NCBI GenBank assembly: GCA_964627525.1 | Contig: CAZVIA010000007.1 | Span: 1 to 50,638 of the forward strand | DNA: 50,638 bases | Origin: an uncultured Gammaproteobacteria bacterium | GTDB lineage: Bacteria; Patescibacteriota; Patescibacteriia; Magasanikbacterales; JBBTQS01 | Direction of reading: 5' to 3' | Shown here: positions 31,509 to 38,773 of the stretch, piece after piece | Numbering within the stretch: position 1 is the first letter of the stretch | Layout: each line of letters begins with the position of its first letter | Made by a program: the position numbers and the translations under genes | The notes under the pieces: model-generated | What the model was told of the DNA's origin: nothing | The model's database searches: none | What the model saw: only the letters and a program-made list of their open reading frames with translations

Positions 31509-31829
31509 ATGTTATTCAATAAAATTTTTCGTTATTTTTTTCCAGAAAATCATCCGTCTAAAGTGAAAAAAGATTACGGAATACCAGAAAAAATTAATTT
31601 TAATGTTACACGAAAACCTAGTGGTTGGTTTGTGATTACATCTCCAGACTTGCCTGGTTTAGTTTCTCAATGCAAAAATTTAGATGAATTAATAGTTGTT
31701 TATAATGATGCAATATTAACATATTTTGATGTGCCAAAAAAAGAATCAGATTATGTTTTCAATGGATTAGATTTGCATGGTGTTGGTCAGTTGAAATTGG
31801 AAAAAGGTAGAGAGGTTAGGTATGCGTAA
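31509..31829 (+). CDS. HicB-like antitoxin
   Basis: GWFVITSPDLPGLVSQCKNLDEL...DAI partial RNase H-fold pattern. Confidence 0.65.
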   Translation: MLFNKIFRYFFPENHPSKVKKDYGIPEKINFNVTRKPSGWFVITSPDLPGLVSQCKNLDELIVVYNDAILTYFDVPKKESDYVFNGLDLHGVGQLKLEKGREVRYA

Positions 31830-31834
31830 ATTGT

Positions 31835-32095
31835 ATGGGAAAGCTAGAGACGTTCAATAGAAAAAAATGTATTAGTGCACTTCTCAAACTTGAATTTACT
31901 AGAAAGAAAACACGTAGAGGTAGGCATGATAAATATGCGTCACCAGCAAAATATTTGGAGCAGAGAATTAAAAATCAACCGCCATTTATTATGGTACCTA
32001 GGAGCAGGGTGTTGCACTGTCAAAATGAAATTGTAAAAGAGTTGCGAAATTTAGGTGGGCAAGATTTGGTAAAAAAGTTTGAGGAAAATTTGTAA
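31835..32095 (+). CDS. HicA-like toxin
   Basis: 86 aa, basic; ISALLKLEF...RGRHDKY...IMVP dsRBD-like pattern. Confidence 0.6.
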   Translation: MGKLETFNRKKCISALLKLEFTRKKTRRGRHDKYASPAKYLEQRIKNQPPFIMVPRSRVLHCQNEIVKELRNLGGQDLVKKFEENL

Positions 32096-33805: not shown

Positions 33806-33833
33806 AAAGGAGGTGTTTGCGCGCCTTCTTTTA
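33806..33833 (+). terminator. Hairpin terminator after gap
   Basis: AAAAGGAGGTG-TTTGCG-CGCCTTCTTTT. Confidence 0.5.
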
Positions 33834-33884
33834 ATTTTAAAAAAATTTGCATACATATTTAATCCAGTGGTAAACTCATTGCAT

Positions 33885-34715
33885 ATGGCACAGTTTGATC
33901 AACAATACAAAAACGCAATTCTTCGCATAATGAATGAGGGGATTGATGAATATAATGAACGTACAGGGCATACTACTAAAGTTATTCCTGGGCTGACTTT
34001 TGAAGTGGATACAGGTTTTCCTTTGCTGACTTTGAGAAAAATTCCAGTGCGTTTGTTTGTGGCTGAACAGATTTGGTTTTTAATGGGGTCGCAAAGGCCA
34101 TGTGAATTTTTGCGGGACTACACAAAAATTTGGGATGATTTTACAGAAGCAGATGGGACTGTTCAGGCAGCTTATGGTTATCGTTGGCGAAATCATTTTG
34201 GTCGTGATCAACTTGAGGATTTAGTTAATTTGTTAAAAACACAACCTGGATCGCGACATGCTGTGGTTGTAACTTGGGATCCTTCAGATGATGGTTTGGG
34301 TACAGGTACTCGTAAAAAAAATGTGCCATGTCCATACACTTTTACAATAAATATTATTGGAAACAAATTACACATGCATAATATTATTCGTTCTAATGAT
34401 ATGATGTTGGGTTGTCCGCATGATGTCGCAGGTTTTGCTTTGCTCATGTATATTTTGGCGGCAAAAATTGGTGTGAAGCCTGGGAAGTATACACACAGTA
34501 TTAGCAATGCGCATATTTATGACATACATTATAAACATGCTTGGGAATTAGTTGAGCGCGAAGATACACACCCATCAATTTATTTTGAAGCACAGGAAAA
34601 TTATTATGATCGTGCGCGCTTGGGTGATAAGTTTTTAGTAAAAGAAATTGTAAGTAAATTAAATTCACAATACAATCCACAAAAATCTATTAAGGGAATG
34701 GATATTGTTTTATAA
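33885..34715 (+). CDS. thyA: Thymidylate synthase
   Basis: IWDDF, AAYGYRWR, SRHAVVVTWDP, VPCPY (catalytic Cys), RSNDMMLG, HIYDIH; ATG 33885 preferred. Confidence 0.93.
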   Translation: MAQFDQQYKNAILRIMNEGIDEYNERTGHTTKVIPGLTFEVDTGFPLLTLRKIPVRLFVAEQIWFLMGSQRPCEFLRDYTKIWDDFTEADGTVQAAYGYRWRNHFGRDQLEDLVNLLKTQPGSRHAVVVTWDPSDDGLGTGTRKKNVPCPYTFTINIIGNKLHMHNIIRSNDMMLGCPHDVAGFALLMYILAAKIGVKPGKYTHSISNAHIYDIHYKHAWELVEREDTHPSIYFEAQENYYDRARLGDKFLVKEIVSKLNSQYNPQKSIKGMDIVL

Positions 34716-34718
34716 ATT

Positions 34719-35228
34719 ATGAAAACGATTTTAGTAATGGCAATCACAGCTGATGGAATGATTGGAAAGCATTCAGATCATTTGGCAGATTGGACAAGTA
34801 AAGCAGATAAAAAACATTTTGTGCAATTCACAAAAGAGGTTGGTGTTTTGATAATGGGAAAAACAACTTATGACACAATTGGTCGTCCGCTGCCTGGTCG
34901 GTTAAATGTAATTATGGATTTGCATCCAGATGTTTCTCAAAATATTGAAGGTGAACTGGAGTTTACAAATACACAACCTGCGGAATTATTGGGGCAGATT
35001 GAGGTGCGCGGTTTTGATCGTTGTATAATTGCTGGTGGTGCAACTATAAATGGCTTGTTTTTAAAAGCTGGTTTGGTTGATGAAATAAAAATTACTGTTG
35101 AACCAAAATTATTTGGTGAAGGTTTGTCATTATTTCGTGGTGCAGATGTTGATTTGGATTTGAAGTTGTTGAGTTGTGAAAAAATTAGTGAAAATTCTGT
35201 GCAGTTACACTATCGGCTGGTTAAATAA
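34719..35228 (+). CDS. folA: Dihydrofolate reductase
   Basis: MAITADGMIG, DKKHF, IMGKTTY, RPLPGRLN, IAGG; follows thyA. Confidence 0.88.
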   Translation: MKTILVMAITADGMIGKHSDHLADWTSKADKKHFVQFTKEVGVLIMGKTTYDTIGRPLPGRLNVIMDLHPDVSQNIEGELEFTNTQPAELLGQIEVRGFDRCIIAGGATINGLFLKAGLVDEIKITVEPKLFGEGLSLFRGADVDLDLKLLSCEKISENSVQLHYRLVK

Positions 35229-35251: not shown

Positions 35252-35905
35252 ATGATTTTAAATAAAAACGAACTACTCTCATATATAAAGGAAGGAAAAA
35301 TTAGTTTTACGCCAGAGTTGGATGGTTTTCAAATTCAGCCGAACTCACTTGATTTGCGTTTAGGTTGGAGTTTTTATGTTCCAAAAACAACTGAAATGTC
35401 TGAATCTGGTCGAGTTGGTGTTGCTGCAGATTATTTAGAATATGAGCAACCAAAAGAATATTACAAAATGGTAAAGTTGTCTCCGCGCCAGTGTTTTGAA
35501 ATTCAGCCAAAAGAATTTGTGATTGTTTCTACTTTAGAAAAAGTTTCTTTAGAAGATGGGACAGTGGCTGCAACTTTGTATCCAAGAAGTTCTGTAATGC
35601 GACGGGGTTTAATTATTGAAGGTGGTGTAGTGGATGCTCATTTTTCTGGACACTTAACAATTCCAGTTTTTAATAGTACGTCACATGCAATTAAATTATT
35701 TCCTGGAGAACGTTTGTGTCAATTAGTTTTTCATAAATTGTGTAGTGCATTAACAAAAGAAGATTCTGCAAAACATGGTTTAGATGGATCAAAATATATG
35801 GGAGCAACTCCTTATGGTCTTGAAGCTAAGTCGGATAACAAACAAGAAATTGATTTAATTAAGTCAGGTGCTTTGGATCAATTAAAAACAAATTTTCCTT
35901 TATAA
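35252..35905 (+). CDS. dcd: dCTP deaminase
   Basis: QPNSLDLRLG, PRSSVMRRG, VDAHFSGHLT, GERLCQL. Confidence 0.88.
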   Translation: MILNKNELLSYIKEGKISFTPELDGFQIQPNSLDLRLGWSFYVPKTTEMSESGRVGVAADYLEYEQPKEYYKMVKLSPRQCFEIQPKEFVIVSTLEKVSLEDGTVAATLYPRSSVMRRGLIIEGGVVDAHFSGHLTIPVFNSTSHAIKLFPGERLCQLVFHKLCSALTKEDSAKHGLDGSKYMGATPYGLEAKSDNKQEIDLIKSGALDQLKTNFPL

Positions 35906-35916
35906 AAAAACAAAAT

Positions 35917-36828
35917 ATGAAAACAATGCCTTATCTTCCAGAAGGAAGGAGTGTGTCTTATGTAGATGTAAATCATCCGCACATGGCTGCTGCAAAAAAA
36001 ATGTCTTTGCAATCAAATGGTTGTCGTTGGAAAAATGGTTCAGTGATTGTGCTGAATAATAATGTAATAGCACAAGGAGCAAATTGTATTGAAGTAGCGA
36101 ATCGTCCGATGTATTGTGCGCGTGAAGTTTTAGAATGTAAAAGTGGTGAAGGTTATGATCACTGCCCAACTTGTGTTGGTTCTCATGCTGAAAGATCTGC
36201 TTTGCAAAACGCGCAAGAGTGTGGAGTGGTTGTTGCTGGGGCGGATTTATATTTGTATGGACATTGGTGGTGTTGCAAACCTTGTTGGGATGAAATGATT
36301 CAAGCTGGGATTAAAGATGTTTATTTATTAAGTGAAGCTCAAGAACATTTTGAAGTAATGGATTGGGTAAAACCAACTTGGTCACAAGATTTAAAAACAT
36401 ATATTTCTTGTCCTTTAACTCATTCACCAGAAGAAACTCGACAAGTTTATAAAAAAATTCAATTGGCTTTGGATTTGGCGAATTTAAATTGTCATGCGCC
36501 GCACACTTGGGCTGATCCAATTATTAAAGGTGTGGTTGATGTGACTGCAGAACAAGTTTATAAAAATGATTACAATCATGTGGTTACAGCTCAGTTGGTA
36601 ATTGCAGTTTTAAATGAACCATCTCTTGGTGTTGGTATTGAATTACAAATTGCACAGCAGTACGGTATTCCAATAATTGGAGTTGTGCATGAAGATGTTA
36701 CAGTTTCAAGAATGGCTTTGGGTATTCCACAGATGTTGCGTATAATAAAGTACAAAGATTTACCAGACATGTTAAAACAATTAAATAATGTGTTGCATGA
36801 AGTTGTTGTGCCGCGCTATGGGATTTAA
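35917..36828 (+). CDS. Fusion: cytidine/dCMP-deaminase-like domain + nucleoside 2-deoxyribosyltransferase/DNPH1-like domain
   Basis: HAE...WCCKPC zinc-deaminase motifs; C-terminal KTYISCPLT...D...PSLGVGIELQIA. Confidence 0.8.
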   Translation: MKTMPYLPEGRSVSYVDVNHPHMAAAKKMSLQSNGCRWKNGSVIVLNNNVIAQGANCIEVANRPMYCAREVLECKSGEGYDHCPTCVGSHAERSALQNAQECGVVVAGADLYLYGHWWCCKPCWDEMIQAGIKDVYLLSEAQEHFEVMDWVKPTWSQDLKTYISCPLTHSPEETRQVYKKIQLALDLANLNCHAPHTWADPIIKGVVDVTAEQVYKNDYNHVVTAQLVIAVLNEPSLGVGIELQIAQQYGIPIIGVVHEDVTVSRMALGIPQMLRIIKYKDLPDMLKQLNNVLHEVVVPRYGI

Positions 36829-36846: not shown

Positions 36847-37383
36847 ATGAAAAAAATTCTTGGATTTGTTGGGAGTATTGCATCTGGCAAAGGAACAGCT
36901 TGTAAATATTTGCAAGAAAAACACGGGGCTGATTCAGTTCGCTATTCAACTATGTTGCGAGATATGGTCGGGCGTTTGTATTTGCCAGAAACAAGAGATG
37001 TTTTAATAAAAATGTCTGAAACTGTGCGCGGAACTTTTGGAGATGACATAATGGCAAAAGTTGTAAAGCAAGAAGCTGAAAGTTCTGATGCTGAAATTGT
37101 GTGTATTGATGGAATTCGTCGGCCAAAAGATATTGAGATTTTTAGAGAAGTGGAAGGTTTTGTTTTGGTTCATATTAAGGCAGATATTGAAAAACGTTTT
37201 GAACGATTAGTTGGGCGAGATGAAAATCAGGATGATACTTCAAAAACTTTTGAGCAATTTAAAAAAGAACATGAGCGCAGTACAGAAAAAACAATAGCAA
37301 GCGTGGCTGAAGAAGCAGATGTTGTGATTGATAATAATGGTTCATTTGAGGATTTGTATAAAGAGTTAGATAGGTTGGTTTAA
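36847..37383 (+). CDS. P-loop nucleotide monophosphate kinase-like protein
   Basis: GSIASGKGT Walker A, IDGIRR, RFERLVGR, IDNNGS. Confidence 0.8.
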   Translation: MKKILGFVGSIASGKGTACKYLQEKHGADSVRYSTMLRDMVGRLYLPETRDVLIKMSETVRGTFGDDIMAKVVKQEAESSDAEIVCIDGIRRPKDIEIFREVEGFVLVHIKADIEKRFERLVGRDENQDDTSKTFEQFKKEHERSTEKTIASVAEEADVVIDNNGSFEDLYKELDRLV

Positions 37384-37450: not shown

Positions 37451-37523
37451 AATCCTAATTAAATTCAAAACCCCAAAAGTTGTTAACTTTTGGGGTTGAG
37501 TTCGTGCCAAAGTCAATCAAAGA

Positions 37524-37937
37524 TTAGAATCCAGGCCCTTTGTGACCTCGGTCTCTACGTACTCTACAAAGATCAGTCAAGATTTCTGAACCAAGTCTGC
37601 TCTCAAGTGTGTAGTGTATCTTAAAAACATGTCTTTGTGCCAGCAAAACATATGTAAAGATTTCCCAATACTCAAACTGATTATCAGTTGGGTATTTTTC
37701 CAAAAATGCAATAAAAGTATCAAGCCTAGCTACAAGAGCTTTGATCTTAGTAATGCTTTGTCGCGCATCTGATGGTTGCACATCAGAAAGTGGACAGTGA
37801 CGAATATTGTCACTCAACTCTTTGGTTCTTGCTACAGAAGCATCAAGAAAATCCCATTGTCCGTTTTGTCTTACTTGTGTTTTGACATGGTTTTCCAACT
37901 CAATACAGAGCTCAACAATTTTATCTGCTGTTGTCAT
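37524..37937 (-). CDS. Hypothetical helical protein (ORFan)
   Basis: ATG 37937 with SD GGGAGG; downstream hairpin AACCCCAAAAGTT/AACTTTTGGGGTT. Confidence 0.65.
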   Translation of the reverse strand: MTTADKIVELCIELENHVKTQVRQNGQWDFLDASVARTKELSDNIRHCPLSDVQPSDARQSITKIKALVARLDTFIAFLEKYPTDNQFEYWEIFTYVLLAQRHVFKIHYTLESRLGSEILTDLCRVRRDRGHKGPGF

Positions 37938-38041
37938 ATTCCTCCCTTCTGGCATTAAGTACCAGAGATCACAATAACATACACAGATTTTTTGTCAATA
38001 ATCATAATAAGGAGTAAGATAAGGATAAATAACACAAAAAT

Positions 38042-38773
38042 ATGCTTTTAGGAAAATTTATAATGATAGATGGAATTGATGGTTCTGGCAAAAGTACAAT
38101 AATCAATACTTGGGAGGATATTTTAGAAAAATCTGGGAAAAAAGTTTTTGAATTAAAAAGTTTTTGGGAAAAACACAATCGTCATCCAGAGTTAGAAGAA
38201 ATTCCAGAAAATACTTTTGCAATAATTTCTGCAGAGCCAACTTATGTTTGGACAGGTTCAGCAGTTAGGCAAGAGTTAATACAAAATGGAAAAGGTTATT
38301 CAGCACTTGCAGTTGCAACAGGTTTTTCTTTACAAAGATTAGTTTTGTACAAAAGAATTTTAGTTCCAGCGCGCGAAAAAGGAATTCACATAATTCAAGA
38401 TAGGGGAGTTTCAACTTCTTTGTGTTATCAGCCAATTCAATCAAATGGAGAAATTAGTATGGATGAAATTGCGCAACTAGAAGGTAATGCGTTTGCTTTG
38501 GAAAATGCACCAGATATTTTGATGTTATTAGATATTTCTCCAGAAAAATGTATGGAAAGATTAGGGGGTCGTACAGAAAAAAATGACAATGCAATTTTTG
38601 AGCGCTTAGATTTTCAGAAAAAAACAGATCAGTGTTATAAGTCAGAAGAATTTTTAAGTTTTTTCAGATCAAAAGGAACACAGATTGAGAGCTTTAACGC
38701 AGACCAAGAACTTGATATACTTAAATCACAGTTACATTCTTATTTAATTAATTATTTATCTATTGAAATATGA
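38042..38773 (+). CDS. tmk: Thymidylate kinase
   Basis: IDGIDGSGKST, IQDRGVSTSLCYQ, PDILMLLDISPE. Confidence 0.88.
   Translation: MLLGKFIMIDGIDGSGKSTIINTWEDILEKSGKKVFELKSFWEKHNRHPELEEIPENTFAIISAEPTYVWTGSAVRQELIQNGKGYSALAVATGFSLQRLVLYKRILVPAREKGIHIIQDRGVSTSLCYQPIQSNGEISMDEIAQLEGNAFALENAPDILMLLDISPEKCMERLGGRTEKNDNAIFERLDFQKKTDQCYKSEEFLSFFRSKGTQIESFNADQELDILKSQLHSYLINYLSIEI

Follow-up and report, generated by a model that had tools for sequence, protein, structure and literature searches.

The window analyzed here is a stretch of 50,638 nucleotides of contig CAZVIA010000007.1 (assembly GCA_964627525.1) from an uncultured bacterium of the Patescibacteriota. It carries an operon in which genes for a thymidylate synthase (TS) homologue, a dihydrofolate reductase (DHFR) and a Dcd-like protein precede a gene for a two-domain protein, a zinc deaminase joined to a domain resembling the nucleotide hydrolase DNPH1. 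This fusion is real and conserved. We put it close to an even chance, and no higher, that it works as a bifunctional enzyme within a rewired thymidylate operon, in which deoxycytidylate (dCMP) would be methylated and then deaminated, and in which the C-terminal domain would destroy uracil-type deoxynucleoside monophosphates (dNMPs). This proposal is read from sequence, and the evidence for it comes from both domains of the fusion, from altered residues in two neighboring proteins and from the distribution of these features across the phylum.

The open reading frame (ORF) contains the motifs GSHAERSA (with His90 and Glu92), HWWCCKPCW (with Cys120 and Cys123), KTYISCPLTHS and EPSLGVGIELQIA. An earlier note, made from the sequence, had described this ORF, its motifs and its two domains and had proposed a check by hidden Markov models (HMMs) and structure. 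We found the ORF and motifs as described, and both domains are supported by Pfam, by a family profile and by an AlphaFold2 (AF2) model searched with Foldseek. The model, computed with 47 homologues, has a mean pLDDT (predicted local distance difference test) of 91.8 and a pTM (predicted template modeling score) of 0.83 and consists of two alpha/beta domains. About 50 full-length homologues of 290–320 residues were found in Uhrbacteria, Moranbacteria and other Patescibacteria. With each species represented by one genome, a scan located this deaminase subfamily at 308 places, and 80 species-representative loci were kept; about 35 of the 80 encode full-length fusions. The fusion is therefore neither a chance ORF nor an assembly artefact, and the conservation across the candidate phyla radiation (CPR) that the earlier note had wanted checked is borne out. 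The catalytic residues are complete in both halves of the window protein (His90, Glu92, Cys120 and Cys123; Tyr162, Asp218, Ser236 and Glu242). Residue counts given below for the two domains refer to 47 aligned fusion homologues. In a quick maximum-likelihood tree of the deaminase domain (SH-aLRT support, midpoint root), the fused forms fall into three groups. No match to the fusion was found in phage records. A recent phage origin of the gene was rejected on this ground and because the deaminase of phage PaMx74 is unrelated to it at the BLAST level. Our literature search found no paper that describes this fusion or ties Patescibacteria to thymidylate synthesis at the dCMP level. The fusion is a variant on known kinds, namely the pair of DCTD and DNPH1 and the 5-methyl-deoxycytidine route of phages.

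The N-terminal domain is, by its sequence features, a zinc deaminase of the cytidine deaminase (CDA) fold and of the dCMP deaminase type, with dCMP or a 5-substituted dCMP as its predicted substrate. Residues 22–137 match the Pfam family dCMP_cyt_deam_1 (PF00383) with E 8.6e-10 and 38.9 bits against a cutoff of 25. The zinc ligand His90 and the catalytic Glu92 of the H-A-E motif are invariant (47/47), as are Cys120 and Cys123, and the zinc-ligand motif of the window protein reads C-C120-K-P-C123. Its nearest solved relatives, by sequence and by Foldseek, are the dCMP deaminases of cyanophage S-TIM5, Streptococcus mutans, phage T4 and human.

The C-terminal domain looks like an active N-glycosidase of nucleoside monophosphates (NMPs) of the DNPH1 type, as judged by its residues, profile and fold. 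On a single sequence the Pfam match is marginal (Nuc_deoxyrib_tr, PF05014, residues 162–260; 29.0 bits against a cutoff of 28.8). A profile of 26 C-terminal domains searched against the Protein Data Bank (PDB) matched human DNPH1 with E 3e-12, BcmB with 9e-7, nucleoside 2-deoxyribosyltransferase with 3e-5 and MilB with 4e-5. In the alignment to DNPH1, the columns of His56, Asp80, Ser98, Gly100, Glu104 and Ser128 are matched. Foldseek gave target TM scores of 0.76–0.80 for DNPH1, 0.76–0.83 for MilB/BcmB and 0.59–0.68 for nucleoside 2-deoxyribosyltransferases. In DNPH1, Glu104 is the nucleophile, Tyr24 its hydrogen-bond partner and Asp80 the acid/base, and the 5'-phosphate is held by Ser98, Gly100, the backbone amides of residues 29–31 and Ser128 of the partner subunit (PMC10483697). 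The window equivalents of Tyr24 (Tyr162), Ser98 (Ser236) and Glu104 (Glu242, in PSLGVGIE) are present in 47/47 fusions, that of Gly100 (Gly238) in 45/47 and that of the partner-subunit Ser128 (Ser264) in 38/47. The position of Asp80 (Asp218) holds Asp in 25, Asn in 14 and another residue in 8 of the 47. Tyr162 was equated with Tyr24 because it lies in the first strand, within Y-I-S-[GC], and because the folds match; the HMM alignment begins past Tyr162. The conserved serines of the phosphate clamp argue for a nucleotide rather than a nucleoside as substrate. The PDB titles of the DNPH1 entries now read 5-hydroxymethyl-dUMP N-hydrolase, and nothing usable on how DNPH1 residues recognize the 5-hydroxymethyl group was found in PMC12751057. 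We infer that the domain is a DNPH1-type dNMP N-glycosidase and that it would cleave uracil-type dNMPs.

The domain belongs to a large family. In an exhaustive profile search, 3,703 representative clusters matched at E <= 1e-3, of which 89 reached E <= 1e-30, and the top matches are mostly stand-alone proteins of 135–170 residues. A word-based search for stand-alone proteins had come back blank; that blank was a limit of sensitivity, since the profile and genome searches then recovered many.

The TS homologue and the Dcd-like protein differ from their canonical counterparts at key positions. The ThyA equivalog models of NCBIfam score 112–148 bits on the TS homologue, against cutoffs of 325–405, and the broader TIGR03284 is passed (123.5 against 108.35). 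When the TS homologue is aligned with authentic ThyA (PDB IDs 3ix6 and 6auj), Asp occupies the position of Asn177 (PHDVAG against PFNIAS), and Pro stands directly past the catalytic Cys, where canonical ThyA has His147. Among loci with this deaminase, the TS has Asp177 in 74/74 and Pro147 in 71/74. In published mutagenesis and phage work, replacing Asn177 with Asp makes TS use dCMP instead of dUMP, with 5-methyl-dCMP as the product, and phages with modified cytosine are told apart from others by two positions, 177 and 147 (PMC8670742; PMC5175136). Five of seven phage TS homologues of the Asp type made 5-methyl-dCMP, and the phage deaminases encoded in cis preferred 5-methyl-deoxycytidine nucleotides, which they converted to thymidine nucleotides (bioRxiv 10.1101/2024.12.05.627091). 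The criterion used in that study, Asp177 in a TS homologue in cis with a dCMP-family deaminase, also describes the window TS. Its closest relatives among 4,288 phage TS homologues are those of PaMx74, AAT-1 and related Xanthomonas, Stenotrophomonas and Achromobacter phages; of these, PaMx74 is cited as having 5-methylcytosine in place of cytosine (bioRxiv 10.1101/2024.12.05.627091). We predict that the TS homologue is a dCMP C5-methyltransferase. CPR folA genes have been shown to rescue E. coli delta-folA (PMC11974145), which fits a TS that releases dihydrofolate and thus a methylase rather than a hydroxymethylase.

In the Dcd-like protein, Pro stands in for the water-activating Glu of the deamination reaction (GHITLELSN in M. 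tuberculosis Dcd, PDB ID 2qxx, against GHLTIPVFN in the window), and related loci have Pro at this position in 72/73. The protein is predicted to be a pyrophosphatase and not a dCTP deaminase. The earlier note had held that dcd already supplies the route through dUMP. This does not agree with the missing Glu or with Asp177 in the TS, and because of these two changes the operon is probably not based on dUMP. The deaminase domain would then probably be a core biosynthetic enzyme, taking 5-methyl-dCMP to dTMP, and not only a sanitizer.

Across Patescibacteria, these residues sort into two coherent gene sets. The phylum sample comprised 401 genomes, 196 of them with a TS gene; the tallies include one unpublished genome (G154), on which no particular claim depends. 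Most of the 196 TS genes score like canonical ThyA and about 35 fall, with that of the window, in a low-scoring class, the classes resting on Pfam score and not on a reading of residue 177. For set A we took the loci of the 30 best Pfam-scoring TS genes (TS ±1.5 kb), and the loci of set B were found via this deaminase. Residue 177 is Asn in 30/30 of set A and Asp in 74/74 of set B; residue 147 is His in 29/30 and Pro in 71/74, respectively. The catalytic position of Dcd is Glu in 7/8 neighbors in set A and Pro in 72/73 in set B. This deaminase is found in 0/30 set-A loci (within TS ±1.5 kb) and, by selection, in all of set B. At the genome level, 14 of the 401 genomes encode the deaminase subfamily, and 13 of these have a TS of the low-scoring class by Pfam score; none of the approximately 126 genomes with canonical scores encodes it. 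The contrasts in residues and in co-occurrence show that the phylum holds two alternative gene sets. As read from the sequences, set A is ThyA(His,Asn) with DHFR and Dcd(Glu), and set B is TS(Pro,Asp) with DHFR, Dcd-like(Pro) and a CDA-fold deaminase. Set B is patchy, since most relatives of the window genome in the same order carry a TS that scores as set A. The idea of the Asp-type TS as a phylum-wide trait was rejected: it is a minority (about 35 of the 196 TS-bearing genomes, by score class), and the claim was narrowed to its linkage with this deaminase subfamily.

Two genomes of the sample may be set beside these counts. The only genome of the same order with this deaminase (G223:C5:98811-99703) has two tandem copies, one in an open frame of 357 residues. 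A single-contig genome that is 99 % complete encodes the deaminase subfamily in a frame of 237 residues (G383:C1:157877-158308), with no Pfam TS listed.

The window genome (G000; 812 kb, 96.5 % complete) encodes serine hydroxymethyltransferase (SHMT), one ribonucleotide reductase, a thymidine kinase and a weak Cmk. Within this 96.5 % we found no other TS-family gene and no ThyX, no dUTPase-family gene beyond the Dcd-like one and no gene of the uracil-DNA glycosylase (UDG) superfamily. Neither DeoC nor uracil phosphoribosyltransferase (UPRTase) was found in it or in its genus-mate. The products of the glycosidase thus look like waste, which favors disposal over salvage. Of the two roles offered by the earlier note, sanitizer or salvage enzyme, the first likely holds for the C-terminal domain and the second is not supported.

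These observations can be assembled into a pathway. The Dcd-fold protein would only remove pyrophosphate, converting dCTP to dCMP and/or dUTP to dUMP. The TS homologue, with Asp177 and Pro147, would use methylene-tetrahydrofolate to convert dCMP to 5-methyl-dCMP; DHFR would regenerate the cofactor from dihydrofolate, with SHMT also taking part in folate recycling. The deaminase domain of the fusion would then convert 5-methyl-dCMP to dTMP, and Tmk would convert dTMP to dTDP. Uracil nucleotides would not be obligatory intermediates. In the C-terminal domain, Glu242 would be the nucleophile, held by Tyr162, with Asp218 as acid/base and with Ser236, Gly238 and Ser264 of the partner subunit clamping the 5'-phosphate. 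Its targets would be dUMP, arising by deamination of dCMP, and 5-hydroxymethyl-dUMP, arising by deamination of a hydrated by-product of TS. Both would be dead ends because an Asp-type TS cannot use them, and any that reached DNA would meet no UDG in the cell. The domain would have to spare dTMP.

Known cellular thymidylate synthesis starts from dUMP and proceeds via ThyA or ThyX. To our knowledge, dCMP-first thymidylate chemistry has so far been shown only for phages with 5-methylcytosine DNA. Set-B Patescibacteria may have a third cellular route that avoids uracil nucleotides, with the fusion as its last enzyme and as the hydrolase that erases its by-products, a possibility that we rank just short of probable. 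If so, some ultra-small bacteria make thymidylate from dCMP through 5-methyl-dCMP, and the absence of dUTPase, of a working dCTP deaminase and of UDG from such genomes is explained. Annotation pipelines now assign these genes the names "thymidylate synthase", "dCTP deaminase" and "deaminase" or "hypothetical protein", and metabolic reconstructions of Patescibacteria would then be wrong at this point. In our estimate it is highly improbable that the neighboring phage-type dNMP kinase phosphorylates 5-methyl-dCMP and that cytosine, in part or entirely, is thereby incorporated into DNA in its 5-methylated form, the situation found in phage Xp12.

Several observations weigh against this methylate-then-deaminate proposal. 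The substrates of all four enzymes are taken from residues and context, and a natural Asp177 TS could retain activity on dUMP. No sequence signature of 5-methylcytosine selectivity in deaminases was found in the published literature, which describes the trait as polyphyletic; the lack of a BLAST-level relationship to the PaMx74 deaminase counts here as well. The characterized phage enzyme mSCD-B5 uses triphosphates and not monophosphates (bioRxiv 10.1101/2024.12.05.627091). The presence of a thymidine kinase means that de novo synthesis of dTMP is not strictly required. For the C-terminal domain, the equivalent of Asp80, Asp in the window protein, is not family-wide (Asn in 14/47, another residue in 8/47), and the domain is optional, being absent from most set-B loci with this deaminase. 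DNPH1-like genes occur in 87 of the 401 sampled genomes, often remote from the TS cluster, so the general role of the family need not be tied to this pathway. In the deaminase-domain tree, the window fusion clusters with two other members (L001 and L006) and with two forms in which an ORF of 232 residues keeps the deaminase and has lost the catalytic core of the C-terminal domain (L011:4131-4826 and L020:6001-6696). All that remains of the domain in them is its first strand together with its last helix (...LVARYAS), which looks like domain decay under way in the window's own clade, outside Uhrbacteria.

Other explanations must be weighed against the same data. In the conventional order, the deaminase would convert dCMP to dUMP, the TS would methylate dUMP despite Asp177, and the C-terminal domain would trim excess or modified dNMPs. 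A dCMP deaminase beside thyA and folA is the textbook arrangement of Gram-positive bacteria and eukaryotes, the best solved relatives of the deaminase are ordinary dCMP deaminases, and NCBIfam would label the neighbors thymidylate synthase and dCTP deaminase. We nevertheless consider this order unlikely: Asp177 and Pro147 are linked perfectly to this deaminase and Asn177 and His147 to its absence, the loss of the Dcd Glu is confined to the Asp-type set, the nearest phage TS homologues come from 5-methylcytosine phages, and the specificity switch from Asn to Asp is published (PMC8670742; PMC5175136). The two domains might instead act in series in catabolism or salvage, taking dCMP to dUMP and then to uracil and deoxyribose-5-phosphate and so recycling scavenged deoxynucleotides. 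CPR bacteria live by scavenging, the order of the domains suits a two-step series, and DNPH1-like genes are widespread in Patescibacteria, often off the TS cluster. The absence of DeoC and UPRTase from the window genome and its genus-mate makes such recycling distinctly unlikely, as does the fact that the form of the deaminase subfamily without the C-terminal domain consistently accompanies the Asp-type TS; fusions of these domains to DHFR and of the deaminase to Tmk, described below, point to dTMP synthesis.

The C-terminal domain could also be a nucleotide-binding module for regulation or oligomerization, for example one that senses dNMP levels, and not a hydrolase. Classical dCMP deaminases are allosterically regulated, the Asp80 equivalent is unconserved (Asp in 25/47), and the domain decays in L011 and L020 while the gene persists. 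An invariant Glu nucleophile, Tyr partner and phosphate-clamp Ser (47/47) would be unexpected in a mere scaffold, and stand-alone homologues carry the same motifs, which leaves this explanation very unlikely. We give almost no credence to an anti-phage system of the AvcD type, an analogy drawn in the earlier note, in which a kinase and a deaminase drain deoxycytidine pools upon infection. The neighboring kinase does match the kinase part of AvcD-type models (E 6.3e-11 and 1.8e-15), a deaminase–kinase fusion exists at one locus (L068), and two proteins with DNPH1-like and Dcd-fold domains (P0228 and P0243) look defense-like. The deaminase of the fusion, however, matches the AvcD-type models at E 0.0014–0.006, far under the cutoff (NF041025, 17.5 bits against 400; PADLOC dCTPase, E 0.0059). 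AvcD-type proteins carry an N-terminal P-loop kinase-like domain and a C-terminal deaminase in one chain, whereas the kinase here is a separate gene; it matches phage dNMP kinases better, and the operon is a housekeeping one with the only TS and DHFR of the genome. The analogy thus fails on the side of the deaminase, and the kinase is a homologue of phage-type dNMP kinases.

The closest known systems share some features with the fusion and its operon and differ in others. Human and rat DNPH1 (Rcl, 2'-deoxynucleoside 5'-phosphate N-hydrolase; PDB IDs 8os9, 8rps, 4fyh and 2khz), which hydrolyze dNMPs and prefer 5-hydroxymethyl-dUMP, share with the C-terminal domain the fold, the best profile match and the equivalents of Tyr24, Asp80, Ser98, Gly100, Glu104 and Ser128. 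They differ from it in sequence (identity of about 17–21 %), in the N-terminal phosphate loop, which in the window family reads Y-I-S-C/G-x-L-T, in the position of Arg30, which is not kept (Thr in 41/47), and in that the Asp80 equivalent is variable in the window family. In mammals, separate DCTD and then DNPH1 clear 5-hydroxymethyl-dUMP. The likeness to this pair, pointed out in the earlier note, is upheld by the matches in domain, fold and residues: a dCMP-type deaminase is paired with a glycosidase in both cases. The window version is a single polypeptide, and the genus-mate adds a Dcd-fold domain to it. DNPH1 is a current cancer-drug target, and a bacterial pair that is readily expressed and naturally coupled could show how a sanitizer is matched to the deaminase that makes its substrate.

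The 5-methylcytosine module of phages such as Xp12 and PaMx74 likewise clusters its activities; the PaMx74 locus encodes a pyrophosphohydrolase, TS, dCMP deaminase and DHFR. The PaMx74 TS shares Pro147, Asp177 and the AAYGYRWRNHFGRDQ block with the window TS, at 35 % identity. In contrast to the phage module, the window operon is cellular, chromosomal and housekeeping, its pyrophosphatase is Dcd-fold rather than MazG-like, and its deaminase is of an unrelated subfamily that bears a DNPH1-like domain. The N-glycosidases of CMP and hydroxymethyl-CMP, MilB and BcmB (PDB IDs 4jem, 4ohb and 4jen), have the same fold (target TM 0.76–0.83). Their partner is the TS-family CMP hydroxymethylase MilA, so that an NMP N-glycosidase stands beside a cytosine-specific TS enzyme of the Asp type (PMC5175136), and the window operon likewise has its glycosidase beside an Asp-type TS-family enzyme. 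Their profile match is weaker than that of DNPH1 (9e-7 and 4e-5 against 3e-12), and MilB acts on ribonucleotides in antibiotic biosynthesis, genes for which are absent near the window fusion. Nucleoside 2-deoxyribosyltransferases (PDB IDs 7m5h and 8pqq), which lack a phosphate site and transfer deoxyribose from base to base, represent the Pfam family matched by the C-terminal domain (PF05014) and share the chemistry of a Glu nucleophile. Their similarity is lower (TM 0.59–0.68; E 3e-5), and the conserved phosphate-clamp serines of the window domain argue against a nucleoside substrate.

The same activities are joined in other ways elsewhere, which is evidence that they are coupled. The genus-mate (G401) encodes one protein of 544 residues that combines Dcd-like(Pro), deaminase and DNPH1-like domains (L154:775-2409), with a linker rich in Pro, Thr and Ala and with H-G-E in place of H-A-E in the deaminase motif; the same kinase and tmk come after it. 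P0002 has this architecture and is N-terminally truncated. P0022 and P0032 are triple fusions of DHFR, deaminase and DNPH1-like domains, and P0102 fuses the deaminase to Tmk. At L068:444-1538, a single ORF of 365 residues joins the deaminase to a domain like P-loop dNMP kinases, in reversed order compared with AvcD. The DNPH1-like domain is N-terminal to the same deaminase subfamily in P0130 (the opposite order), to a CDA-type cytidine deaminase in P0203 and to Dcd-fold domains in P0193, P0228 and P0243; the Dcd Glu is retained in P0243. Both P0228 and P0243 terminate in hydrophobic tails and could be defense-like. At five loci (L069, L079, L092, L110 and L116), a DNPH1-like gene stands alone, either within the TS cluster or next to it. 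In one Patescibacteria family, a stand-alone DNPH1-like gene is immediately upstream of gatB (L094/L097:1486-1920). The gene preceding it (L097:3-1496) encodes 498 residues with MtrA-like, TS-like and PterinBD-DUF4346 parts, a third kind of TS-family neighbor.

The coordinates of the window features are collected in Table 1. The gene order given in the earlier note, thyA-folA-dcd-fusion-kinase with tmk nearby, is correct as an order by ORFs and family matches. The gaps between the five genes are 3, 23, 11 and 18 nt, tmk follows about 650 nt further on, and the operon lies among gap, tsf and gatB. The DHFR gene adjoins the TS gene in most loci. The P-loop kinase matches the dNMP kinases of phrog_139 over its full length (E 3.6e-20) and PRK08356 of NCBIfam with E 5.5e-21. 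The hairpin downstream of it is likely the end of the operon.

Table 1. Features of the thymidylate operon and its surroundings (window coordinates).
Feature	Position	Strand	Basis
TS-family gene ("thyA"), predicted dCMP C5-methyltransferase	33813..34715	+	Pfam PF00303, 176.7 bits; Cys146-Pro147, Asp177 (E. coli numbering)
Dihydrofolate reductase (DHFR/RibD_C fold)	34719..35228	+	Pfam RibD_C 2.6e-18, DHFR_1 1.5e-14
Dcd/dUTPase-fold protein without the deaminating Glu (GHLTIPVFN), predicted dCTP and/or dUTP pyrophosphatase	35252..35905	+	Pfam DCD 8e-30
Deaminase + DNPH1-like fusion, 303 residues	35917..36828	+	ORF, Pfam, AF2, Foldseek, family profile, residue counts in 47 homologues
Zinc deaminase domain, residues 1-150	35917..36366	+	PF00383, solved relatives, 47/47 conservation
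Deaminase residue His90	36184-36186	+	
Deaminase residue Glu92	36190-36192	+	
Deaminase residue Cys120	36274-36276	+	
Deaminase residue Cys123	36283-36285	+	
DNPH1-like dNMP N-glycosidase domain (predicted), residues ~160-295	36394..36801	+	Profile against PDB, Foldseek, residue counts
C-terminal domain residue Tyr162	36400-36402	+	
C-terminal domain residue Asp218	36568-36570	+	
C-terminal domain residue Ser236	36622-36624	+	
C-terminal domain residue Glu242	36640-36642	+	
C-terminal domain residue Ser264	36706-36708	+	
P-loop kinase, homologue of phage-type dNMP kinases	36847..37383	+	phrog_139, NCBIfam PRK08356
Perfect hairpin, 13 bp	37469..37497	.	Between the kinase gene and the convergent orf143
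dTMP kinase (tmk), separate downstream unit	38042..38773	+	TIGR00041, 85 bits against a cutoff of 83.25

The longest TS ORF begins with the GTG at 33813, 50 nt past the gap stop codon; an in-frame ATG at 33885 (MAQFDQQYKN...) is the likelier start and fits the starts of homologues. A promoter scan was uninformative, with 36 sites against 28 expected. The ORF convergent on the kinase gene (143 residues, 37524-37955, minus strand) has no family match. Between tsf and gap, two small adjoining ORFs of 106 and 86 residues (31509-32095, plus strand) are, by eye, a candidate toxin–antitoxin pair of the HicB/HicA type.

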